A stretch of 64,000 bases of DNA, taken from the IMG/VR virus record IMGVR_UViG_3300046171_000155; one strand, 5' to 3'. The notes beneath the pieces were generated by a model, which was not told where the DNA came from, did not search any database, and saw nothing but the letters and a program-made list of their open reading frames with translations. The translations under genes and the position numbers were made by a program. This DNA is from a virus. Positions 4,978-63,999 of the stretch are shown piece after piece. How positions within the stretch are numbered: the first letter of the stretch is position 1; each line of letters opens with the position of its first letter.

Positions 4978-5657
4978 TACGGAGTCTCTATGTCCTCGAT
5001 CAACATATCACGCATAGCACGTGCCTGTGCGTCTTCAGGATTATCTACACTACCATTATTCACAAACTTGTAAGCAAGGGTGATACGTTGACACTCCGTG
5101 TATGCGGCGTGCCAACAGTGTAGGTCTTCTTCATGACCCGCACCAAAATAATAGTGTCGGCATTGCCAGCCAGGGACATCTGGTATTTTTACAATCTCAT
5201 CGTTCTTCTTGTCATAGTATTCAAAGAACCCGTCTCCGGTCTCTGACCACGTAAACAGAACCTGATATGCGTTGGCATCAAAGTTAGTGTGCCAACCCAC
5301 AAAACCGCCTGGCGGATAGTAAGATAGTAGGGCAGATGTATGCGCACCAAGTTCGGACGCGAAGTCGTACTTGACCTTTTGCATAAATCCACCCCACGTC
5401 TCTTTATCTTCACGCACCATCTTTGAAATCGGTTGTGCGAAGTATCTATCGGGCGGGCCAACTAGACCATCACGGCCGCGGGATAAACAGTCTAGGAGAT
5501 ACTCACGTGATGTGTAGTACGACCCTAGATCCACATCCTTGCGTTCATGATAGGTCCAATACTTTTCGTCGTTGTACGACGGTTTAGACAGCATCTCGTC
5601 CGAGAAACTGTTCAGAGTCTTCAACATGTCTTTGTTACGAATAACAACTTCTGTCAT
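4977..5657 (-). CDS. 2OG-Fe(II) oxygenase-like (DSBH) protein, paralogue 1
   Basis: YYPPGGFVGWHTN...WHAA...RITLAY pattern shared with 27374-28033 and 53156-53863. Confidence 0.6.
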   Translation of the reverse strand: MTEVVIRNKDMLKTLNSFSDEMLSKPSYNDEKYWTYHERKDVDLGSYYTSREYLLDCLSRGRDGLVGPPDRYFAQPISKMVREDKETWGGFMQKVKYDFASELGAHTSALLSYYPPGGFVGWHTNFDANAYQVLFTWSETGDGFFEYYDKKNDEIVKIPDVPGWQCRHYYFGAGHEEDLHCWHAAYTECQRITLAYKFVNNGSVDNPEDAQARAMRDMLIEDIETP

Positions 5658-5854
5658 TTTTTCTTACCATTACGATGAATGATCATGGAGTATCTATCTC
5701 CAATCTGTTGCTTGAAGGACACAGTATCTCCCTCTTGCAAGTCAAGTTGCTCAAATAGTTTATTTGGTATCTCAAAGGCAAGATCGCCTTCAAGGACCGT
5801 AGGAACTACTGGGCAGTTGAAAATTTGATTAGTCTTTTTCATCGAAACTGTCAT
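5654..5854 (-). CDS. AbrB/MazE/SpoVT-like small DNA-binding protein
   Basis: LAFEIPNKLFEQLDLQEGDTVSF matches the swapped-hairpin IP..L.L..GD.V pattern. Confidence 0.6.
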   Translation of the reverse strand: MTVSMKKTNQIFNCPVVPTVLEGDLAFEIPNKLFEQLDLQEGDTVSFKQQIGDRYSMIIHRNGKKK

Positions 5855-9682: not shown

Positions 9683-10623
9683 TAGTCTACCTCGTTATAT
9701 TCTTTGTACCACTCGTAAAATCTTTCAACACCTTCTGCGATACTCACTTTTGGTTGATAACCAAGTGCGCCAAGTTTAGATGTGTCTGACCATGTTTCCT
9801 TGGTGTCTGCCGGATGCTTAGGTGCAAGATTCTTAATTGCTGTCTTACCAGTGTTCTTTTCAATTTCACCAATAAAGTCCATCAACTCGACTTGTTCACC
9901 ACGACCAATGTTAAAGATCTCACCAGACTGGATATCGGTGTTATCTAAGACGACTTCAATACCGTCCAAAATGTCATCAATATAAGTGAAGTCGCGCTTC
10001 ATGTCACCATAATTATACACGGTTATTTCTTTTTCGTCAAGAATGTTCTTAGTGAAATCAAACAATGCCATATCCGGACGGCCCCAAGGACCATAGACTG
10101 TGAAGAAACGCAGACCGACAGTATTGAGACCAGACGACTGCATCTGACACTCGTTCGCCCACTTGGTGTATCCGTATGCGTTCAACTGCTTACCATGTTC
10201 GCGACCTTCCACCCATGGCACCGGAGCGCCAGCATAAATGCATGAAGTTGACGCATAGACGATACGCGTTTTTGGTAAATGCCTTTTACAAACATCAATC
10301 AGGTTCTGCGTCCCATCGATATTATTTGCGTGATAACTCTTCTCTTTACCTAGTGAGTCGCGCACACCTGCCATCGCACCTAAGTGCACGATAGTGTCTG
10401 GTTTAAAATCCCACAAGAGTGCTTCTAACTTGACCTCATCTGTTAGGTCGCATCCCCAAATATCAAGGTTAAAGTGGACCATGCGGTCGCGTTTCAACTT
10501 TGGAGTATATAAGTGGTTGTTAAAATTGTCAATTCCCTTGACCGAAAGACCACGATCCATCAGCCGTTTTGATAACTGAGATCCAATGAATCCAGCGGCA
10601 CCTGTAACTAAAACTCTTTTCAT
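9682..10623 (-). CDS. NAD-dependent epimerase, UDP-glucuronate 4-epimerase-like
   Basis: TGAAGFIG, YGYTK, GLRFFTVYGPWGRPDMA, RDFTYIDDI. Confidence 0.92.
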   Translation of the reverse strand: MKRVLVTGAAGFIGSQLSKRLMDRGLSVKGIDNFNNHLYTPKLKRDRMVHFNLDIWGCDLTDEVKLEALLWDFKPDTIVHLGAMAGVRDSLGKEKSYHANNIDGTQNLIDVCKRHLPKTRIVYASTSCIYAGAPVPWVEGREHGKQLNAYGYTKWANECQMQSSGLNTVGLRFFTVYGPWGRPDMALFDFTKNILDEKEITVYNYGDMKRDFTYIDDILDGIEVVLDNTDIQSGEIFNIGRGEQVELMDFIGEIEKNTGKTAIKNLAPKHPADTKETWSDTSKLGALGYQPKVSIAEGVERFYEWYKEYNEVD

Positions 10624-10624
10624 T

Positions 10625-11569
10625 TTATCCGTTCCTGTAAATATATTCTAATGCCCTGTCTGCTTCTGCAGTCAGTGGTCTATTTTCATACCAGTTGCCT
10701 GTCTCAAGATCAAACTCGCGACATAGATCTGCAATCTGGTTTGCGGTGATTGGGTATCCTTTAGAGTATGCATTACCCGCAATCGCAATCATTATCTTGT
10801 ACATTTTAAAATACCATCCGGAGTCTGTAATCTGCATATATTGCGCACCCAGCTTACGCGGCCAGAATGGGCAATCACGATAAGAAGACCATCGGTAGTC
10901 GGTGTTATTTAGACCATCTTTACGATACTGTATAACTGCTGCTCGCATCTCAGGTGATAGTCTATCAAGGAAGGTATTGTTCGTTTTCTCATGATAAGGA
11001 TGTTTTGCAATCAACTCAGACGCATTCATGGGGTTGCCACCAGAGTTGACCATAAAGAACGAATACGCGTTGGGATACTGTGCGGGCACGTAGTACATAC
11101 GCGCAAGATCTTTCGTCTGTGGATCACCGAGTTCACCTAGTTCTGTATTGAGTGCATGCCAGAACGCTTTGATACGATTGTTCTCGATCTGTTCGTCGAG
11201 ACGGAATATGATTCGAAATTTTAGATGCTCTTCTGTACTACTCGCTGTGTTGTAGACGACATAGTCATACTGACCATACTTGCGATGTAACCAAGTTCGC
11301 AAAGATTCTACATTAGTGCAACCGTCAATAGGATCATCCACATCAACGCAACACCAAGGAGACCAATATAGAACAGATCGATTACTACGCGTCGTACCCA
11401 CGTCGAACACAGCAGGAGTAAGAAGAGGAGAACTATTGGATCCACCTTTCTCTCCAGGTTTAGTGTAAGAATCACGAAGACACACCACGAAGTCCATCCA
11501 CGACATAAATGTGGTACGACGGTGTGTCTTGTTATCAAACTGGTTTTTGAATAGAGTTAGCTCATACAT
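10625..11569 (-). CDS. AEP-superfamily primase/polymerase-like protein
   Basis: CCVDVDD (DxD), YNTASS...KFRIIFRL, DPQTKDLARMYYVP; helical C-terminal domain. Confidence 0.6.
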   Translation of the reverse strand: MYELTLFKNQFDNKTHRRTTFMSWMDFVVCLRDSYTKPGEKGGSNSSPLLTPAVFDVGTTRSNRSVLYWSPWCCVDVDDPIDGCTNVESLRTWLHRKYGQYDYVVYNTASSTEEHLKFRIIFRLDEQIENNRIKAFWHALNTELGELGDPQTKDLARMYYVPAQYPNAYSFFMVNSGGNPMNASELIAKHPYHEKTNNTFLDRLSPEMRAAVIQYRKDGLNNTDYRWSSYRDCPFWPRKLGAQYMQITDSGWYFKMYKIMIAIAGNAYSKGYPITANQIADLCREFDLETGNWYENRPLTAEADRALEYIYRNG

Positions 11570-53863: not shown

Positions 53864-54597
53864 AAGATTGGTGTATCCTTATTTAAACCTGCAGAGAAGT
53901 GACGAATAATCACTGGTCCTGTTTCAGGTTTTGTGATCGCCCAGTTAAGAGCGTTATAATAGTTCCATCTCAAGTCGTCATCAAAGATACCGACTTTGAG
54001 ATCCTTATACTTTTCTTCTTTCTCGGTCAACCACCAGAGTGAGAACTGATCCCAAGATTTGAGACTGTCTGCATACCCTTCTGGCCACCAAGAGTCATTC
54101 ATTTGTCTGAATGTCAAGTCCCACCAATCATCCATGAACTCACGTACAATCGGTTTGGACATATCATATAAACATACTGCTCCACACAATACAAACTTTG
54201 ATACACCTTCCGGAGTGTCAAAGTCACGTTCTGCATATATGTAGTCACGGTCATCTGTCAAAGCAGTAAAGACCACATCATGGTCCTTCATTTCATCCCA
54301 TACTTTGACGATGTCTTCATGCTCTACTTCCATATCAGCATCAATATACATCGTTAGGTCATACGGCGATTTCGCCATACCCCATAACTTAGCGCGGTAG
54401 TGATCGTCACATAAGAGAATATCGTCTGCGACATCTCGACCACGGTCATCAAGGAATCGTTCCTCAGTCACCAAACAGATCTTGCATTCCTCTTCTGGTT
54501 CATAGTAGTCCCGAAGAGACTCTGCAAGATTGATTGCGTACAAATAAAAGTTGCGTTTCTTAGACGCAACAATAATAAAACCTTTACTCTTTTCCAT
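53860..54597 (-). CDS. GT-A fold glycosyltransferase-like protein
   Basis: RAKLWGMAKSPYDLTMYIDAD (DxD), CGAVCLY, WDQFSLW, IIRH. Confidence 0.7.
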   Translation of the reverse strand: MEKSKGFIIVASKKRNFYLYAINLAESLRDYYEPEEECKICLVTEERFLDDRGRDVADDILLCDDHYRAKLWGMAKSPYDLTMYIDADMEVEHEDIVKVWDEMKDHDVVFTALTDDRDYIYAERDFDTPEGVSKFVLCGAVCLYDMSKPIVREFMDDWWDLTFRQMNDSWWPEGYADSLKSWDQFSLWWLTEKEEKYKDLKVGIFDDDLRWNYYNALNWAITKPETGPVIIRHFSAGLNKDTPIL

Positions 54598-55045
54598 CTG
54601 TCTCGGCCTCTAGTTGTTCTTGCAGAATCATAATTGAGTACATATCTACTTCAATCTTTGACTTTGCCCGACGCAGTTTAGCCTTCAACTTGCGGTTCTT
54701 AGAGTTCTTAATCTCTTCAACCTCAAACGCTTCTAGTTTGTAGTTGAACAGTTTTTCTAGTTTACGTGCCTTTTGGTGTTCTAAGTCACGTTGTTTTTCT
54801 TCTTCAGCTTCTGCCTTCTTACGAACAACACGATCTTCAGTTTCTTTATTAATCGATTCTTCGCCTAGAGCATCAACTACTTCATTAAACAGTTCGTTCT
54901 CACTACCATCTTTGTTGTGACGTAATAAAAACATTTGCTGTCGTGTAACACGACCCACATCATCTTCAAGTTCTAAAATACAGTTGAGTTCTTTTTTCTC
55001 TTCTGTTTCCCAGAACGCATTATCCATCCATTGCTTACGACTCAT
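54584..55045 (-). CDS. Hypothetical protein with charged coiled coil
   Basis: GGAG SD; first gene after the 1513-aa repeat gene. Confidence 0.7.
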   Translation of the reverse strand: MSRKQWMDNAFWETEEKKELNCILELEDDVGRVTRQQMFLLRHNKDGSENELFNEVVDALGEESINKETEDRVVRKKAEAEEEKQRDLEHQKARKLEKLFNYKLEAFEVEEIKNSKNRKLKAKLRRAKSKIEVDMYSIMILQEQLEAETDGKE

Positions 55046-55135: not shown

Positions 55136-58100
55136 TTATGCAACCCTTGCGTATAGAGTATACGTCTCGACCACATTAGTTAGTGAGTCAGAGATTGTTG
55201 CACCTACGTAGTTACCTAGGAACGATCGTGCGTAGTTACCTACGAAGTCACGGTTATAGTTTCCTTCGAATCCACGAGTATAGTTACCAGTGAAGTCACC
55301 TACGTATGTTGAAACACGATTACGTGAGTAAGCACCTGAGTAAGCAGATGTTCTGATACGTGCGTATGCAGATACGCGGACACGAGAGTAGTTACCTACA
55401 AAGTCACGAGAGTAAGTACCAGTGTACTCACCTACGAAACCACGGTTGTAGTTACCTACATAGTTCCCTGCGAAGTCACGCGAGTAAGCACCTGTGTATT
55501 CACCAACGAATCCACGAGCATAGTTACCTACATAATCACCAGCAAATCCGCGAGTGTATGCACCAGTGTATTCACCAGCGAATCCACGTGAGTAAGCACC
55601 TGTGTACTCACCTACGAAACCACGGTTATAGTTTCCTACGAAGTCTCCGACAAAGTCACGAGCATATGCACCAGTGTACTCACCTGCAAACGTTCTTGCG
55701 TAGTTACCTACGAAGTCGCCGGCAAATTGACGTGTGTACTGACCTGAGAAAGTACGCGCATAGTTACCAGTGAATGTTGTGTTATACGTACCAGCATATT
55801 CACCAACGAAACCTCTTGCGTAGTTACCAGTATAGTCACCAGCGAAGTTACGGTTGTAAGTGCCAGAGTAAGCACCAGTGTACTCACCTACGAATCCACG
55901 AGAGTAAGCACCAGTGTACTGACCAGAGAATCCACGAGAGTAGTTACCCACATAGTTTCCACCGAAGTTACGTGCATAGTTACCTACATAGTTACCAGCG
56001 AAGTCCCCAACGAAATCACCGACGAAGTTGCCAGCGAAGTTGCGTGAGTAGTTGCCAGTAAATGTGCGAGAATAGTTACCAGTAAAGTCACCTGCAAAGT
56101 TAGTCACACGATCACGAGTGTATGCAGAAGAACGGTTGCGGACATATGCAGATACACGAGTTCGTGCGTATGCAGAGTAACGAGTGCGTGTTGATGTGCG
56201 AGTGTACTCACCAGTAAAGTTACCAGCAAAGTCACCTGCGAATCCACGCGCGTAGTTACCAACAAAGTCACCGACAAAGTCGCGAGCATAGTTGCCGCTG
56301 AAGTTACCTTCGAAGTTAGTTACACGATCACGAGTAAAGTCACCAACATAGTTGGTTACACGAGTACGAGCATATGCTATTAGCATAGGTTGCGGTGAAA
56401 AGACCTGAGTCCTGTTACGAGTGTATTCGCCTACGAAGTCGCCTGCATAGGACCCAGTACGTGTGTAGTTACCAGTATTCGTGTATACTGCAGTGCGGTC
56501 ACGAGTGAATGCACGAGCGTAGTTACCAGTGTAGTACAATGTACGAGTGTAGTAACCAGTGTTTGTAGAAGTACGTGTAGAAGTACGCGCATAGTTACCT
56601 GTATAAGATGCAGCGCGTGTACGAGAGTAGTTACCCACAAAGTTACCAGCGTAGTTAGTTACACGAGTACGACCGTAGTTACCAGTATAGTTACCTGCGC
56701 GAGTACGACCGTAGTTACCTACGAAGTTTCCAGTATAACCAGTTGCACGAGTTCGTGTGTATGCAGATGCACGATTACGCGTAAAGTTACGCGAGTAAGC
56801 GCCTGAGAAGTACTGGGTTCTCGTATATGCAGATGCACGATTACGCGTAAAGTTACGCGAGTAAGCGCCTGAGTAGTACTGGTTTCTCGTATAGTTACCT
56901 GTATAGTTGCCAGCGTAAGAAAAATTATTGTTATAAGAGAACGCATTTTGGGTAATTGAATAAAACACCTGTTGTCCAAGAGCGCTCTGATATGTACCAC
57001 GCGACCAACTCATTCCGTTACTATTCGATAGTGTTGATGCACCTGCGGTACCGATTGCTCTACTAAATCCGTTCCAATAAGCAAAAGCCATATAAGATTC
57101 ATAATCAATTTCCCAATAAGTGCTATATGCAACATATGTTGGTCCCTGTGCAGCCACACTTACTGTTGAGGTTCTAGTAGATGTTCGAGTGGAAGTTCTC
57201 GTAAAGGTTCCTACGCGACTATAATCTCCACCGTATGCACGTGAGTAGTTACCAGCAAAGTTGCGTGAATAAGATGCTGTGCGACTATAATCTCCACCGT
57301 ATGCGCGTGAATAGTTGCCTGTAAAGTTACGTGAATAGTTACCTGCGAAGTTTCCAGTATAACCAGTTGCACGAGTTCGAGAATAGTTACCTGCATATGA
57401 GAATGCGCGGTTACGTGAGTAGTTACCAGCGAAGTTGCCTTCAAAGTTAGTAACGCGATCACGAGAGTAGTTACCTACATATGATGCAGCACGGTTACGA
57501 GTATAGTTACCTACGAAGTCACCTGCGTAGTATAGAGTACGAGTATATGATGGCGTAGTTGCATATGCGGCAGAATAGTTACGAGCATAGTTGCCTACGA
57601 AGTTACCAGTGTAGTACAATGTACGCGTATAGTTCAATGTACGAGTTGAAGTACGTGTTGAAGTACGCGCATAGTTACCAGTAAAGTCACCAGTGTAGTT
57701 GCCAGCATAGTTACGAGCATAGTTTCCTACGAAATCGCCAGTAAATGTAGTTGCATAGTTACCTACAAAGTTTCCGGCATAGTTAGTAACACGTAGTCGG
57801 GTAAAGTTGCCGACATAGTTAGTAACGCGTGTACGAGCATAAGCACTGTAACGAGTACGAGTAGATGTACGAGTTGAAACACGAGCATAGTTACCGACAT
57901 AGTTGCCAGCAAAACCACGTGAGTAGTTACCTACAAAGTTACGTGCATAGTTGCCTTGGAAAGAACGCGAGTAGTTTCCTACGAAGTTACCAGCAAAGTT
58001 GGTTACACGGTTACGAGTATATGTTGATACACGTGCACGAGAATAAACACCAGCAAAGTTGGTTACACGATCACGAGTGTAGTTAGTTACACGGGTGCGT

Positions 58101-59677
58101 GTGTAATCTGCAGAGTATGCAGAGACGCGTGTACGAGTTGAGGTACGAGCATACGCAGAAACACGGTTACGCGAGTAAGTTCCCGCATAAGCAGAAACAC
58201 GGTTACGTGAGTAAGTGCCTGAGTAAGTACCTGTGTATGATGAAACGCGTGTGCGAGTATAGTTTGCAGAGTATGAAGAACTGCGTGTACGCGAGTAAGT
58301 ACCTGCGTATGAAGAGACACGACCACGAGTGTACGAAGATGCACGACTACGTGAGAATGTTCCGGTGAAGTTAGTCACACGGTTACGAGTGTATGTTGAT
58401 ACACGTGCACGGTTATAAGTTCCTGCGAAGTAACCAGTAAATGCGGTCAATCGGTTACGAGTATATGATGAAACTCTTGTGCGAGCATATGTGCCCGAGT
58501 ACGCAGAAGTACGAGTTCGCGAATAAGTTCCTGAGTAAGCAGAAACGCGAGTACGACCGTAGTTGTCTGAGTAAGACGAATTACGAGTACGCGAGTAAGT
58601 ACCAGTGTATGAAGATACGCGAGTACGACCATAGTCAGCAGCATATGCTGAACTGCGGTTACGTGAGTAAGTACCGTCATAAGTTGAAGTACGCGTACGA
58701 GCATAATTACCTTCAAATCCACGAGTATAGTTACCAGTGAAGTCACGCGTATATGCACCAGTGTAATCCCCCACGAAAGTTCGTGAGAAAGTGTTGACAC
58801 TGTTGCGAGTATATGATGAAATGCGGTCACGACTATATGCAGAAATACGAGTACGAGCATACGAAGAAACACGGTTACGAGTGTAATCGGTATCTATGAT
58901 TGTGCGTCGTGAGTTCTCTGCACTACCACGAGCATGCCATGTTCCTGGCAAGATAGGTGCACCCTGAGCAGAAGATCTTAACTGATAAGATCCAATTGCG
59001 CCTGGGACCGATCGTAATGTCTTAGCTCGTTGACCTAGAGTAAAAGACATTTGACCGTTGGTCATCTCTTTGAAACCATCAAAGGATGAACCATCATAAC
59101 AGATGGCGACCGGACGTTCTTCATCAGGTGCTATGTATGAACCGTCTTTTTGATAAATGTGGTAAGCTGTTGTTGTGCCGTCACCAAGTGTATCGGTGAA
59201 GACATTAGAAATAGCAACCTTATAATCAGGACTTGGTGGAATAGAAGATAGTCTATAAATTCCATTCCATTGGTTTGTTTCCATTGTGCTTAATGCACGA
59301 GTTACAAGGAGGTCTAGATCACCATCCGTCATTTCATAGAAACCCGGATTGTCACCTAGCTCGTAATAACCAACAGGACGTACAAAATTTTCTCCAGACT
59401 CATCAGCAGTACCGCCTACTTGCTTTAGCGTAGTAGTTACGGTGGTACTAGTGATGTTAGATGCAGGGTGTGTTCCTGCCACTTCATTGTAGTATGTATC
59501 TACAAATGAACCAATATTAACACCATCAGTAAGACTGAGGTTGCCTGTGTCACTAGCAGCGGCCGCTGTTAGTGCTTCAGATACGGCATACGCAAGATAT
59601 TCTTCTTGCGAAGGCGTAAATTCCTGTAAGTCACCATTAGCATTTTGAATTTTTAGTGGAATACTAGATGTTGACAC
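55136..59677 (-). CDS. Giant Tyr/Arg/Gly repeat protein 1, predicted self-complementary beta-hairpin fibre
   Basis: ~264-aa N-domain, arm 1 (58885-57164), ~82-aa tip, arm 2 (56917-55202), short C-terminal strand; late promoter upstream. Confidence 0.85.
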   Translation of the reverse strand: MSTSSIPLKIQNANGDLQEFTPSQEEYLAYAVSEALTAAAASDTGNLSLTDGVNIGSFVDTYYNEVAGTHPASNITSTTVTTTLKQVGGTADESGENFVRPVGYYELGDNPGFYEMTDGDLDLLVTRALSTMETNQWNGIYRLSSIPPSPDYKVAISNVFTDTLGDGTTTAYHIYQKDGSYIAPDEERPVAICYDGSSFDGFKEMTNGQMSFTLGQRAKTLRSVPGAIGSYQLRSSAQGAPILPGTWHARGSAENSRRTIIDTDYTRNRVSSYARTRISAYSRDRISSYTRNSVNTFSRTFVGDYTGAYTRDFTGNYTRGFEGNYARTRTSTYDGTYSRNRSSAYAADYGRTRVSSYTGTYSRTRNSSYSDNYGRTRVSAYSGTYSRTRTSAYSGTYARTRVSSYTRNRLTAFTGYFAGTYNRARVSTYTRNRVTNFTGTFSRSRASSYTRGRVSSYAGTYSRTRSSSYSANYTRTRVSSYTGTYSGTYSRNRVSAYAGTYSRNRVSAYARTSTRTRVSAYSADYTRTRVTNYTRDRVTNFAGVYSRARVSTYTRNRVTNFAGNFVGNYSRSFQGNYARNFVGNYSRGFAGNYVGNYARVSTRTSTRTRYSAYARTRVTNYVGNFTRLRVTNYAGNFVGNYATTFTGDFVGNYARNYAGNYTGDFTGNYARTSTRTSTRTLNYTRTLYYTGNFVGNYARNYSAAYATTPSYTRTLYYAGDFVGNYTRNRAASYVGNYSRDRVTNFEGNFAGNYSRNRAFSYAGNYSRTRATGYTGNFAGNYSRNFTGNYSRAYGGDYSRTASYSRNFAGNYSRAYGGDYSRVGTFTRTSTRTSTRTSTVSVAAQGPTYVAYSTYWEIDYESYMAFAYWNGFSRAIGTAGASTLSNSNGMSWSRGTYQSALGQQVFYSITQNAFSYNNNFSYAGNYTGNYTRNQYYSGAYSRNFTRNRASAYTRTQYFSGAYSRNFTRNRASAYTRTRATGYTGNFVGNYGRTRAGNYTGNYGRTRVTNYAGNFVGNYSRTRAASYTGNYARTSTRTSTNTGYYTRTLYYTGNYARAFTRDRTAVYTNTGNYTRTGSYAGDFVGEYTRNRTQVFSPQPMLIAYARTRVTNYVGDFTRDRVTNFEGNFSGNYARDFVGDFVGNYARGFAGDFAGNFTGEYTRTSTRTRYSAYARTRVSAYVRNRSSAYTRDRVTNFAGDFTGNYSRTFTGNYSRNFAGNFVGDFVGDFAGNYVGNYARNFGGNYVGNYSRGFSGQYTGAYSRGFVGEYTGAYSGTYNRNFAGDYTGNYARGFVGEYAGTYNTTFTGNYARTFSGQYTRQFAGDFVGNYARTFAGEYTGAYARDFVGDFVGNYNRGFVGEYTGAYSRGFAGEYTGAYTRGFAGDYVGNYARGFVGEYTGAYSRDFAGNYVGNYNRGFVGEYTGTYSRDFVGNYSRVRVSAYARIRTSAYSGAYSRNRVSTYVGDFTGNYTRGFEGNYNRDFVGNYARSFLGNYVGATISDSLTNVVETYTLYARVA

Positions 59678-59746: not shown

Positions 59747-59770
59747 AAAAAATCCCCTAAGAGTTAGGGG
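59747..59770 (-). terminator. Intrinsic terminator
   Basis: CCCCTAA-CTC-TTAGGGG then ATTTTTT. Confidence 0.65.
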
Positions 59771-60242
59771 TTGTAGGCCAATTTACTTCCGCGACGGAAA
59801 GTATCGCTCCTAAATTATCTGTAACATCTCTTAACGATTGACGGTAATTTTTCCATCCTATTCGTTGTTCTTCAGTCAAAGGACTGTCCGCCACTTGAGT
59901 CCAATCTGTTAATGACAATTTTCTATTTCTTTCTACCCTGATATCGTTCAGTAAATCTTCTCGGTTAAACTCCCATCCACCCAGTTCATTGCTCCAAGTG
60001 GCATGCCTATTAGGCGGACTACCAATAAAAATAAATTCTCCATCCGATGGAACATACCAATAATAACTCATAAAGTGACGAAGATCTTCGCACCCTGCAG
60101 GGACTCTATCTTCTGTTATGTGAAGTATTAACTCTTTTCCATCTTCAGAGACACCGGCTGGATCTATTTTAAAAGTAGGGTATGAAATCCTATTTATTTT
60201 ACCAGACACTTTATCTACGTAGACGATGTATTTCAATTCCAT
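59757..60242 (-). CDS. Tail fibre assembly chaperone-like protein
   Basis: C-terminal IRVERNRKLSLTDWTQVADSPL...WKNYRQSLRDVT...VNWP motif. Confidence 0.85.
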   Translation of the reverse strand: MELKYIVYVDKVSGKINRISYPTFKIDPAGVSEDGKELILHITEDRVPAGCEDLRHFMSYYWYVPSDGEFIFIGSPPNRHATWSNELGGWEFNREDLLNDIRVERNRKLSLTDWTQVADSPLTEEQRIGWKNYRQSLRDVTDNLGAILSVAEVNWPTTPNS

Positions 60243-60288: not shown

Positions 60289-63200
60289 TCACTCAAGTCC
60301 AACATTTTCAGAAGTAAATGTTGTAGTAAATGTTGGGGTGTATGTTGGGGTGAATGTTGGAGTATATGTTGGGGTATATGTTGGTGTTGTAGAATCTGTT
60401 GATGTGCTTGACACCTTAGTGACTGTGTACTCTCCTGAGTTCAACCATTGACTTCCATTGTAGAAACCAATAGTGTATTGTTTTGTTTGTCCTTCTGCAG
60501 GTACATCTGAAACAGTAACGGTTTGAGCACCATTAGCGTTCTGTATAGAGAATGATTGAAGGAGAGTTAAGTTGTTATTATAAATTCGACCTTGAACTGA
60601 CTGACCCCCTTGCGTATTAAAATCAAACTCTACCGTATGTGTCGTCGCGCTATGGTGTACAACATTTTGAGTCGTTGATAAAATAGTGCCGATGTCATTA
60701 TCATACAAAGTAAATGACTTTGAGTCAAGTACTCGCACATTAGATGATCCTCTAGGTTCAGACATTAAAGATGCGGTATTGCCTGTTCTCAATTCAGCAA
60801 CGAATGTTTCTCCTTGCCAACCAATTTCAGAATCTTCTTGACTTCCTGTTCCAGTGCGTGTATAATTGCCTATGTAGTTTCCTGTATAGCCTCCTACAAA
60901 TGTTCTCTCGTAAGCACCACCAAATGTATTTGCATAGGAGCTAGATCTAGCGCGAGTACTGGTTCTATTATAAGTGCCTTCGTAAGCGCCAGTATATTCA
61001 CCAACAAACCCTCTACTATAATTTTCTTCAAAAGGTCTTGTATAATCACGAGAATAATTTCCAGTATATTCACCGGCGTAGTTTCCAGAATAATTACCAG
61101 TGTAGTTAGAACCTATTGATCTAGCGAACTCAACAGTATAGTTTCCGATGAATGGTGTTAAAAAATCACCTGTATAGTTACCAGCGAAGTTGCCTACATA
61201 CTCTCCAACATACCCACGTGCATAGTTTCCAGTGTAATTGCCTACAAGGAAGTCTCTAGTAAAATATCCAGCCCCTTGTGTAACTCTTGTGCGAGTAAAT
61301 TCTCTGCTATAATTTCCGCCGAAGTTGCGTGAATAGTTCCCTACGAAGTTTGCAGTATAGTTTCCAAAATAGTTTCTGCTATAATTACCAACAAAGGTGC
61401 CAGCAAAATCACCGACATAATCTCCAACATACCCACGCGCATATTCACCTACAAACCCAGTACTATAGGACCTAGTATATGCCGAATCACGACTTCTAGA
61501 GTAATCTGTTATTCTTGTTCTGTTATAATTGCCCGCAAAGTTGCCCACAGAAGTGCGTGAATAGTTCCCCTCAAAAGTAGAAGTTCTTATGAGAATGAAG
61601 TTTCTACTATAGTATAACGTTCTAGTGAAGTTGCGTGAATAGTTGATAGCATAATCTATGGATCTTGTATAATTACCTGTAAAGTTTCCAGCAAACCCTC
61701 TTGAATAATTACCTACATAATAAAGGGTTCTACTATAACTAGAGGACCTTACTCTAGCATACCCATCATGCGGAACCTCATATTCTATAGGATCACCATT
61801 TATATCAGTCTCAGGTAATGTAGATATTCTGGTAGATGCATAGTATCCAGTTCCAGTTCTTGTGCGAGTGTATCCACGAATAAAGTCCCTCGCATAGTTA
61901 AAGTCTCGCGAGTAAGTGCCTGTAAACGGAGCAGTAAATTCACTGGAATATGTCGCGCCGTTGGTAAATGATTGAGTACGATCCCTAGTAAAATTACGCG
62001 TATATTCAGTAGTTGTTCCAGTAGGGGCCGCGGTAGAACTTGTGGTTCCTTGACCAACTTCATAATACTTGGTGCCACCTATTGTAGCGATTAAATCACC
62101 TCTCCAGTAATAAATGTTATCGTTACCTTTTAACTTAGTTGGGCCGTTGCCATAATCCCGCGTGTCATTAAGTACTTTCGTTGTTCCGTTCCATTTAATA
62201 TTGGTGACATGTACTGTGATCGAAAACCCTTCGGAATTACTAGTATTAGTATCAACTGAGAAGAAAGTGTTGTTTGCAGTGTAAAAATATCCATCGCCAA
62301 TGGTACGTGTATATCCACGAGAATAGTTACCAGTAAAAGTACTAATTCTTCCTGCTGCAGCGAAGTCGCCAACATAGTTGCCTGTGTAAGTGCCTTCGTA
62401 ACCAACAGTTCTCGTAAAGTTGCGTGTGAATCCACGAGAATAGTTTCCTATATAATATAAGGTTCTTGTAGAGTCGGCTGGGAAATAAACTCCAGTAAAT
62501 TCTCCGACATAAGAACCGACTGTTGTTCTGGTGCGACTATAGGCAGAATATCGCGTACGGGTAGATGTGCGAGTAAATTCTACTGCTGGGTTTACATAAT
62601 TCCCAAGATAATTTCTAGCGTATGACCCCACCCTAGTATAGTCACCAGCATAGTTACCAGTGTAACTTGCGCTAGTCGTTCTCGCATAATCACCTACAAA
62701 ATTCGTAACTCTGGTTCGCCCGTAGTTGCCAACAAAGTTCCCAGTAAAAGTTGCAGTATATGTACTAGAGTAATACTCGTTACGAGTCACGCCTCTAGTG
62801 CGACTATATGTAGAGTAACGTGTGCGACTATATGTTACCGTACTTGGCATTCTAAAATAATACGCAACATCACCAGTGGGAAAGTCTCTAGAGTACTCTT
62901 GTGGTCCAGTTAATATAGCATTTCTTGTAAACTCTCTAGCGTAATATGCTGTATAGGATACAGTACGATCTCTGGTATACGCAGAAACTCTCGACCTTGT
63001 ATAGTTTCTACTGTAGTAGCCAATATATGATGCACCATAACTACGAGCATACGATGAAGTTCGGGTAGCTTGTCTGCTTCGGTTGTAGGTAGAGTAACGT
63101 GTACGACTATATGTCACCGTACTTGGCATTCTAAAATAATACGCAACATCACCATTGGGAAGGTTTCTAGAGTACTCTTGTATTTCAGTTAATGTAGAAT

Positions 63201-63999
63201 TTCTTGTGAAGTTTCCTGTGTAGGTCCCCAAGAACTCTCTAGAGTAATTCGTAGTATCTGTTCTGCTGTATCCCGCTACAAATGCAGAGGTTCTGGTTCT
63301 TGAATATGTCGCAGAAAAAGATCGCGCGTACCCTTCAACTCTTGTTCTATCATAAGTACTTGTTCTTGTTCGAGCGTATGCTCCAGAATACTCTCCGGTA
63401 TATTCTCCAACATAATTACGAGCAAAATCTCTTGAGAACGACCCTGCTACACTTCGAGAGTATGAAGATATTCTATTTCTTGAATATGTGCCTATGTAAT
63501 CAGCAACATTGGTATATGAGACTGATCTCGATGAGGTGGGAGAAGTTGTTGTGAAGGTTGCGCTTTTAGTATCACCAAAGAAAGCTACTCTGTCCGACCC
63601 TAAGTCGTTCCCAGAACCAGAAGTTTGAAACACTCGAACATGATATGCACCTTCTTCAGAAGTATTCGCATTGAATGTAATAGAACTTCCTTCTGTAATT
63701 GCAGATCCTGATTGATATGTCAGAGATCCAGTAGCGTTTTGATCTCCGGAACCGTCACCATCTGAGTCAACATCACCGCCACCACCAGGAGGTTCATAGG
63801 TACCAGACCCACCAGTTCTCAAGGTTGCGCCTAGAAGACTGCCTGTAGGATAAACTTTGAGTCTCTGGTCGCCATTTTGTAAATCCACAATAGCATCATA
63901 AGCTGAAGCTAATGTGCTACCAACCCTTAGACCAAAAAAGTCCGATCCGTGTGAGTTTTGAGCAGACCATTCAATATTTACATATTCGTTCGTATCTTT
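60289..63999 (-). CDS. Giant Tyr/Arg/Gly repeat protein 2, 5'-truncated by the window edge
   Basis: Frame stays open for 37 codons beyond the called GTG at 63888; same repeat units; Calx-beta-like halves flank the repeats; C-terminal TPT(Y/F) repeats. Confidence 0.85.
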   Translation of the reverse strand, partial: KDTNEYVNIEWSAQNSHGSDFFGLRVGSTLASAYDAIVDLQNGDQRLKVYPTGSLLGATLRTGGSGTYEPPGGGGDVDSDGDGSGDQNATGSLTYQSGSAITEGSSITFNANTSEEGAYHVRVFQTSGSGNDLGSDRVAFFGDTKSATFTTTSPTSSRSVSYTNVADYIGTYSRNRISSYSRSVAGSFSRDFARNYVGEYTGEYSGAYARTRTSTYDRTRVEGYARSFSATYSRTRTSAFVAGYSRTDTTNYSREFLGTYTGNFTRNSTLTEIQEYSRNLPNGDVAYYFRMPSTVTYSRTRYSTYNRSRQATRTSSYARSYGASYIGYYSRNYTRSRVSAYTRDRTVSYTAYYAREFTRNAILTGPQEYSRDFPTGDVAYYFRMPSTVTYSRTRYSTYSRTRGVTRNEYYSSTYTATFTGNFVGNYGRTRVTNFVGDYARTTSASYTGNYAGDYTRVGSYARNYLGNYVNPAVEFTRTSTRTRYSAYSRTRTTVGSYVGEFTGVYFPADSTRTLYYIGNYSRGFTRNFTRTVGYEGTYTGNYVGDFAAAGRISTFTGNYSRGYTRTIGDGYFYTANNTFFSVDTNTSNSEGFSITVHVTNIKWNGTTKVLNDTRDYGNGPTKLKGNDNIYYWRGDLIATIGGTKYYEVGQGTTSSTAAPTGTTTEYTRNFTRDRTQSFTNGATYSSEFTAPFTGTYSRDFNYARDFIRGYTRTRTGTGYYASTRISTLPETDINGDPIEYEVPHDGYARVRSSSYSRTLYYVGNYSRGFAGNFTGNYTRSIDYAINYSRNFTRTLYYSRNFILIRTSTFEGNYSRTSVGNFAGNYNRTRITDYSRSRDSAYTRSYSTGFVGEYARGYVGDYVGDFAGTFVGNYSRNYFGNYTANFVGNYSRNFGGNYSREFTRTRVTQGAGYFTRDFLVGNYTGNYARGYVGEYVGNFAGNYTGDFLTPFIGNYTVEFARSIGSNYTGNYSGNYAGEYTGNYSRDYTRPFEENYSRGFVGEYTGAYEGTYNRTSTRARSSSYANTFGGAYERTFVGGYTGNYIGNYTRTGTGSQEDSEIGWQGETFVAELRTGNTASLMSEPRGSSNVRVLDSKSFTLYDNDIGTILSTTQNVVHHSATTHTVEFDFNTQGGQSVQGRIYNNNLTLLQSFSIQNANGAQTVTVSDVPAEGQTKQYTIGFYNGSQWLNSGEYTVTKVSSTSTDSTTPTYTPTYTPTFTPTYTPTFTTTFTSENVGLE

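Follow-up and report, generated by a model that had tools for sequence, protein, structure and literature searches.

Does the chain of a phage tail fibre run only once from base to tip, or can it leave a small domain, reach a distal head and return to the domain that it left? This question is raised by the virus record IMGVR_UViG_3300046171_000155 of IMG/VR, a stretch of 64,000 nucleotides that we call the window. The open reading frame (ORF) at 60289-63999 (minus strand) of the window, whose 5′ end is cut by the window edge, encodes 1236 residues (P0001) of a putative tail-fibre protein. The missing 5′ end could be recovered from a full-length metagenomic relative, P0003 (1437 amino acids [aa]), which is 99.6% identical to P0001 and adds the 201 absent N-terminal residues. 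We show that an insert of 898 aa sits in a loop ahead of the last two strands of the first of two immunoglobulin-like (Ig-like) sandwich domains. Taken as a whole, the data are best explained by a fold-back zipper fibre, in which an arm, a tip domain and a second arm are inserted in a single sandwich loop, and we consider this reading probable.

The insert (60832-63525, minus strand; residues 159-1056) was delimited by comparison with arm-less homologues. In a BLASTP alignment of P0003 with the metagenomic phage protein P0137, two high-scoring segment pairs (HSPs) were obtained, one between residues 1-359 and 1-361 (E 1e-27), which includes the N-terminal ~290 aa common to the arm-less homologues, and one between residues 1258-1396 and 360-496 (E 6e-12). 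The two HSPs abut in P0137, yet they lie 898 residues apart in P0003; these 898 aa therefore represent an insertion into one loop. P0137 (519 aa) and P0127 (638 aa), another metagenomic phage protein, have in common with the fibre protein an N-terminal anchor (identity of 30% across 360 aa), the sandwich and the C-terminal Ig-like domain, and their genes have the same chaperone and neighbours. They differ by an uninterrupted sandwich, in which ~6 residues (…VNDSA…) take the place of the 898. Both are encoded in the same syntenic slot as the armed gene and are followed by the same chaperone gene and by a gene of the class of paralogue A, described below; the order in the slot is a 100-aa gene, the fibre gene, Phage_tail_APC, the A-type gene, and a 153-aa gene. 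As armed and arm-less alleles are found in one slot, the insert is a presence/absence polymorphism at a single locus.

Such unsplit homologues were found by an exhaustive profile search with the C-terminal flank of the insert and the C-terminal domain as the query. This search identified proteins of 330-970 aa in which a half similar to the N-terminal flank is directly joined to one similar to the C-terminal flank; a word search for shorter relatives returned C-terminal fragments only. Once joined, the P0001 flanks can be aligned over their whole length with an unbroken stretch of ~110 aa in 12 arm-less proteins (z 5.6-16.9 compared with shuffles). P0129 (969 aa) contains several tandem sandwich-like domains related to the unsplit domain; at its C-terminus, it has a Hint/intein-like module (Pfam Hom_end_hint, E 1e-6, below the cut-off).

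Structure prediction led to the same result. Two AlphaFold2 runs (1149 and 1018 residues) modelled the flanks with a predicted local distance difference test (pLDDT) score of 64-94 and the tip domain with a score of ~80. The N-terminal half of the split sandwich (63526-63738, minus strand; residues 88-158) comprises the strands that precede the insertion point (pLDDT 69-94 in the two models), and the C-terminal half (60685-60831, minus strand; residues 1057-1105; SEIGWQGETFVAEL...FTLYDNDIG) its final two strands (pLDDT 64-93). The second model, built without the C-terminal domain, was used for fold matching. Every one of its best 50 VIA-align matches is a single Ig-like sandwich over model residues 1 to ~1016 (Z 6.6-9.7, 80-113 aligned residues, 2.5-4.2 Å). 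As all of them span both flanks, the AlphaFold2 model closes the flanks into one domain. The original prediction had proposed that the chain departs from one loop of a small domain and returns to it after ~890 aa, and that the flanks, joined after deletion of 63516-60853, would form one domain. The 12 arm-less homologues, the abutting HSPs, and the one-sandwich model agree with this proposal, with insert bounds (60832-63525) close to those predicted.

The two flank motifs are found where they had been placed (ITEGSSITF... at residues 101-151 of P0001 and ...SEIGWQGETFVAEL...FTLYDND at residues 1057-1102) and are the best-conserved parts of the family. The N-terminal half is characterized by the motif TEG...YH.RVF...D...F.G, and nine invariant residues fall in the C-terminal half. 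The invariant positions are the E of TEG, H, D, the E of SE, GE, L, G, F, DxD, and G. What kind of domain is split is a separate matter, for which a Calx-beta label had been suggested. Like Calx-beta (PF03160; NCX1 CBD1/CBD2), the split domain is a beta-sandwich of ~110 aa with a similar-looking order of motifs: TEG near the first loop, F.G..x.T.T, acidic residues followed by GE.F..EL, and a last strand ending in DxD. Based on this motif alignment, the insert position presumably corresponds to the acidic loop of Calx-beta ahead of the final two strands. The acidic residues E (TEG), D, E (SE), E (GE), and D.D are invariant, their equivalence to the Ca2+ sites of Calx-beta being one of motif order only.

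The label itself is not supported. PF03160 gave no match at E<=1 for P0001 or for 10 natural unsplit homologues, and none at E<=10 for either half (20 homologues each). Among Protein Data Bank (PDB) sequences, profiles built from either flank or from the unsplit domain found only noise (E>0.1), and ESM Atlas feature searches with each flank as the query gave no usable match. Calx-beta is not among the best 50 VIA-align fold matches of the split domain. Foldseek matches of the first model to NCX1 were weak (E ~1e-2) and disappeared once the C-terminal domain was removed. The best fold matches of the reunited flanks are domain 3 of HAP2 (7lr3_D, Z 9.7, 97 aa, root mean square deviation [rmsd] 2.6, model range 4-1016) and the macroglobulin domain MG2 of C3/C4/C5/alpha-2-macroglobulin (Z 7.6-8.1; 5jpm_A, Z 8.1, 89 aa, rmsd 2.8). 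With 8-12% identity, these similarities are of fold only, and the common arrangement does not imply a shared function. We prefer to describe the split domain as an Ig-like sandwich that carries a Calx-beta-like motif and is unassigned to a family.

The insert itself consists of two repeat arms on either side of a non-repeat domain. Arm 1 (62275-63519, minus strand; residues 161-575) is made of [YF]-x-[RG]-x tetrads and is rich in arginine. Arm 2 (60832-62013, minus strand; residues 663-1056), antiparallel to arm 1, is made of tetrads of the same type and is rich in glycine. The richness in Arg of the former and in Gly of the latter is strongest in their outer halves. The alphabet of the arms is narrow: T, Y, R, S, G, A, N, V, and F account for ~90% of the residues, and the 810 residues include no Cys, no Lys, no Trp, and one His. 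The tip domain (62014-62274, minus strand; residues 576-662) comprises 87 residues modelled as six beta-strands in both AlphaFold2 runs. In 28 homologues, it occupies the centre and is flanked by two arms of the same length.

Comparison of these homologues shows that the arms are partners. Arm lengths, which range from 220 to 448 aa, correlate across the 28 proteins (r 0.87). In alignments of close homologues, large indels occur only as pairs of equal length and same direction, one in each arm and mirrored about the tip. Seven independent pairs were identified (22/22, 52/52, 16/16, 36/36, 38/38, 18/18, and 18/18). The 22/22 pair distinguishes P0003-5 from P0006-12 and lies after residues 195 and 1015, the two 18/18 pairs adjoin the tip, and the indels that distinguish P0019 from P0026 are nested in the order 36,16|16,36. 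All seven lengths are even, as expected if the facing of the strands must be kept.

The arms also match in sequence. We aligned arm 1 (161-575) globally with reversed arm 2 (663-1057), scoring aromatic:aromatic and R:G pairs. The anti-diagonal alignment scored 100, compared with 57.5 for the parallel orientation and 56.9 ± 9.1 (maximum 81) for 60 shuffles of the repeat units (z 4.8); it pairs 39 R:G, 4 R:R, and 1 G:G, and its register (i+j) stays at 1218-1223 throughout residues 161-426. In eight other family members, the anti-diagonal z ranges from 2.2 to 9.0 and the parallel orientation is always at shuffle level. A register scan of the outer arms singles out i+j=1218, with 13 R:G, 1 R:R, and 0 G:G over residues 164-280, the other in-phase registers having nets of -9 to +6. 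The offset of the best register from the flank motifs is 56-57 in P0001, P0006, P0007, and P0010, 60-61 in P0030, P0031, P0040, and P0041, and 52 in P0027; in P0022, offset 53 (net 6) comes second behind offset 11 (net 7). P0006, P0007, and P0010 carry the extra 22-aa pair, yet the offset of their top register is the same as in P0001, and in three further subfamilies the top offset is almost identical. An earlier local alignment by residue class, run with severe penalties, had given no signal (z 1.8, forward equal to reverse) and was replaced by the register scans and the global alignment.

At the level of sequence, these data show that the arms co-evolve in length and composition as antiparallel partners, and that a specific pairing rule, with an aromatic:aromatic pair at each fourth position and Arg:Gly in between, holds in the outer 266 residues. 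The anti-diagonal complementarity of the outer arms had been predicted and is borne out. The register of the pairs then listed (~1210) is not: it contains 7 R:G, 2 R:R, and 4 G:G (net +1, chance level), and the best register, 1218, is two tetrads away. Likewise, the pairs listed near the tip (register ~1228) are at chance level, and neither these pairs nor the 'kink' described there could be confirmed.

Several observations weigh against the proposed fold-back zipper fibre. Close to the tip, no register stands out in the scan. The arms were modelled with a pLDDT of only 23-50 in both AlphaFold2 runs, so that the models support neither a ribbon nor its register. Arm 1 contains two copies of a 93-aa unit with a LPNGDVAYYFRMPSTVT 'knob', one of which is missing in the orthologues P0010-12, and this duplication has no obvious partner at the DNA level in arm 2. 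The difference from P0010-12 amounts to ~52 aa in arm 1 and to ~35 aa in arm 2; given these unequal differences and the unpartnered duplication, some residues probably loop out. Some subfamilies have only a weak R:G signal (z 2.2-2.4 for P0013, P0014, and P0016), and of 20 proteins no more than 13 show a negative correlation of the mirrored R-G densities. Finally, the oligomeric state, the beta conformation of the arms, receptor binding by the tip, and incorporation into the virion are features that we infer.

Three further observations concern the arms. The positions of phase slips show no clean mirroring between them. At the DNA level, the tandem duplication of arm 1 has a period of 279 nt, its copies at 62794-62943 and 63073-63222 being 85% identical over 150 nt. 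Local arm hairpins in the AlphaFold2 models, compared with the hairpins of pore-forming toxins, gave rmsd values of 12-19 Å, which are meaningless.

We propose the following organization for the fibre. The chain comprises, in order, an N-terminal anchor, a flexible Gly/Asp linker, the small Ig-like sandwich, the second Ig-like domain, and a Thr/Pro/Tyr tail. From the sandwich, the two arms of ~400 residues each would run out and back as beta-strands zipped into a long ribbon, a conformation suggested by the period-four pattern, with its alternate-residue logic, and by the even indels. At ~3.3 Å per residue, ~400 residue pairs would extend over ~130 nm. The tip domain, the presumed distal receptor-binding element, would thus be held ~130 nm from the virion-proximal end. 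Folding is probably assisted by the chaperone encoded downstream, and the fibre would change in length by paired, even-numbered indels that keep the arms matched. Three chains would probably bundle into a six-stranded shaft, like that of the T4 gp37 needle. We hold the fold-back within one chain to be very likely, and rate the chances of the trimeric six-stranded shaft as even.

The closest precedent is the needle of T4 gp37, at whose distal tip the needle D11 is inserted into the collar domain D10 (PMC6957217). In both proteins, a slender, elongated element emerges from a small proximal domain and returns to it, and both belong to a myovirus tail-fibre setting with a dedicated chaperone. An out-and-back chain with a small distal head, known for gp37, is indicated for the fibre protein by the evolutionary evidence given above. 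They differ in several respects. The T4 insert has 128 residues (882-1009), is held by His-x-His iron sites, and forms a proven trimer (PMC6957217); that of the fibre protein is ~seven times longer with 898 residues, has no HxH and a single His in the 810 residues of its arms, relies on aromatic/Arg/Gly tetrads instead, and would be trimeric. The host domain is an Ig-like sandwich in the fibre protein and a gp12-type collar in T4, and Pfam and PHROG searches revealed no sequence homology of the fibre protein to gp37 or to the gp12-type collar.

Each chain might form its own hairpin without any six-stranded shaft, either as a monomer or as three ribbons splaying from a trimeric base. Our analysis contains no evidence for trimerization of the fibre protein, Ig-like host domains need not lie on a three-fold axis, and the arm-less alleles function without a shaft of any kind. 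However, a ribbon of two strands and ~400 residue pairs would hardly be stable by itself, and the myovirus tail fibres known to have Tfa-type chaperones are trimeric. Furthermore, with its strict four-residue pattern the ribbon has one aromatic/Arg/Gly face, which is expected to pack on something. We regard unbundled hairpins as unlikely.

Slightly less likely still is an antiparallel pairing of arms from different chains, in a head-to-tail or domain-swapped oligomer with no intrachain hairpin, in which part of the sandwich would come from a neighbouring subunit. The paired indels and the complementarity demonstrate that the arms are partners, not that the partners belong to the same chain, and in a trimeric six-stranded shaft each arm 1 would contact arm 2 of its own and of the neighbouring chain. 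Against this stands the sandwich of the arm-less homologues, which is one contiguous chain and makes intrachain closure the simplest assumption; AlphaFold2 also closes the sandwich within a single chain at high pLDDT. The compact six-strand model of the tip would place both of its ends on the same side, and in a head-to-tail rod neither end would stand out as distal. The majority of known tail fibres are linear and bind the receptor through a C-terminal domain, and here C-terminal Ig-like domains are followed by a chaperone gene, but a conventional fibre whose chain passes once from base to tip, with the 'tip domain' as a mid-shaft nodule and arms out of mutual contact, is highly improbable and already close to refuted, as it leaves unexplained the seven mirrored pairs of equal-length indels, the sharp register-specific R:G complementarity, and the single-domain state of the flanks in arm-less alleles and models.

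The remaining parts of the protein are as follows. The segment 63739-63999 (minus strand; residues 1-87 of P0001) encodes the end of the N-terminal anchor domain and the Gly/Asp-rich linker, and the gene continues past the window. The C-terminal Ig-like domain (60409-60684, minus strand; residues 1106-1197), compared by VIA-align over model residues 1015-1117, best matches GbpA (8gul_A, Z 7.0, 94 aa, rmsd 2.7). The last 39 residues and the stop codon (60289-60408, minus strand) form a Thr/Pro/Tyr-rich tail of TPTY/TPTF units (repeat family D4). Within it, at 60292-60408, behind the last Ig-like domain, the units are present in six tandem copies with a period of 12 nt.

All long ORFs of the window are on the minus strand, and its closest named relative is phage C48C1 of the Kyanoviridae. 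Neither P0001 nor its parts could be assigned to a Pfam or PHROG family. Immediately downstream, at 59757-60242 (minus strand), lies a tail-fibre assembly chaperone gene (PF16778 Phage_tail_APC, E 5e-18, above the cut-off; PHROG 4912, E 1e-16), and the large genes beside the fibre ORF match tail-fibre PHROGs. The gene is thus directly followed by a chaperone gene inside a block of tail-fibre genes. This chaperone and the surrounding tail-fibre genes argue for a role as a fibre. In our reading, the virus is a T4-like marine myovirus and the product one of its tail-fibre proteins, which would be part of the virion and serve in adsorption. The one pointer to the virion is a weak repeat match to a protein of S-RIM2 annotated 'structural protein'. 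In the contig of P0003, the order is a 1296-aa protein, Phage_tail_APC, a 103-aa gene, the fibre gene, a second Phage_tail_APC, an A-type paralogue, and a 153-aa gene. The arrangement with the chaperone downstream is kept in loci L003, L004, and L005-7, the same neighbour being found behind armed and arm-less alleles.

In L003, two Phage_tail_APC genes (5285-5680 and 10361-10846) belong to one fibre block, each behind a different large fibre gene; in the loci with arm-less alleles (L005-7), only one is visible. A word search, in which the 8000 candidates sharing most words were scored, yielded at least 233 relatives, in none of which the arms have a Pfam assignment. Literature searches found no description of such arms, which does not disprove that one exists.

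Arms of this kind are not restricted to the split sandwich. Paralogue A (1513 aa), encoded at 55136-59677 (minus strand), and a 3347-aa protein of phage C48C1 (OQ984149) resemble the fibre protein in their tetrad arms, the first Arg-rich and the second Gly-rich, in the non-repeat domain at their centre, and in the complementarity of the arms along the anti-diagonal (z 9.0 for A). They differ from it by an unrelated N-terminal domain and by the lack of a split sandwich and of C-terminal domains; in this class, the chain ends 19 aa past arm 2 (…ETYTLYARVA). The arms thus occur in a second host context, and together with the armed and arm-less alleles in one syntenic slot this supports the earlier suggestion of a portable module. 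By BLASTP, the tip domains of paralogue A and of the fibre protein gave an E of 2.6, and a common origin of the tips is not shown.

In class A homologues, a conserved end strand, ...ETYTLYV(R/K)TA, would fit a C-terminal strand docking onto the N-terminal domain. The C48C1 protein (L001, 7143-17186) is Arg-rich in its first half and Gly-rich in its second; a non-repeat block occupies its centre, near residues 1834-2052, and numerous other non-repeat inserts are present. If this protein folds back, its stalk would measure several hundred nm. The 153-aa gene without family (54584-55045 in the window; also in L001, L003, and L005) is always found behind the A-type gene, at the usual place of the chaperone, and is a candidate assembly factor for paralogue A.

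The fibre gene and paralogue A differ in codon usage, as stated in the original prediction, which described the former as richer in AGA and more AT-rich than its CGT-rich paralogue. Of the Arg codons of the fibre gene, 58 of 107 (54%) are AGA and 18 are CGT, compared with 11 (6.5%) AGA and 113 (67%) CGT among the 168 of paralogue A. The GC contents are 40.6% and 45.1%, respectively, and Tyr is encoded by TAT in 71% and 49% of the cases. The bias of the fibre gene is uniform over its arms and therefore fits acquisition of the gene from a different background. From the codon bias alone, the separate history that had been suggested is plausible only. The bias and the armed and arm-less alleles support modular exchange, with no date or direction of transfer. 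Over 42034-63999, the fibre genes have a third-position GC content of 28-33%, much below the 44% of nine other long genes of the window.

It is about as probable as not that the arms are, more generally, a sequence-programmed self-complementary zipper, in which the pairing rule sets the register over hundreds of residues and length changes by paired even indels, as in the stems of nucleic-acid hairpins. The arm-tip-arm cassette would then be gained or lost as a unit in one loop of a fibre protein that functions otherwise, with a tunable reach and swappable tips, leaving the attachment end untouched. Such a rule, which would fix the register along a very long beta structure of two arms, would be of use in protein design. 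If the fold-back zipper fibre is correct, the 'needle in a collar' principle of T4 gp37 extends to a different chemistry at a ~sevenfold scale. The receptor-binding element of these marine phage fibres would then be located mid-polypeptide and not at the C-terminus, and host-range determinants would have to be sought and annotated differently in a large unannotated family. In this family, arms range from ~220 to >1200 residues, their indels come in matched pairs, and one allele of the locus has no arms; the family constitutes a natural series of stalk lengths, and thus a ready experimental system to relate fibre reach to adsorption.

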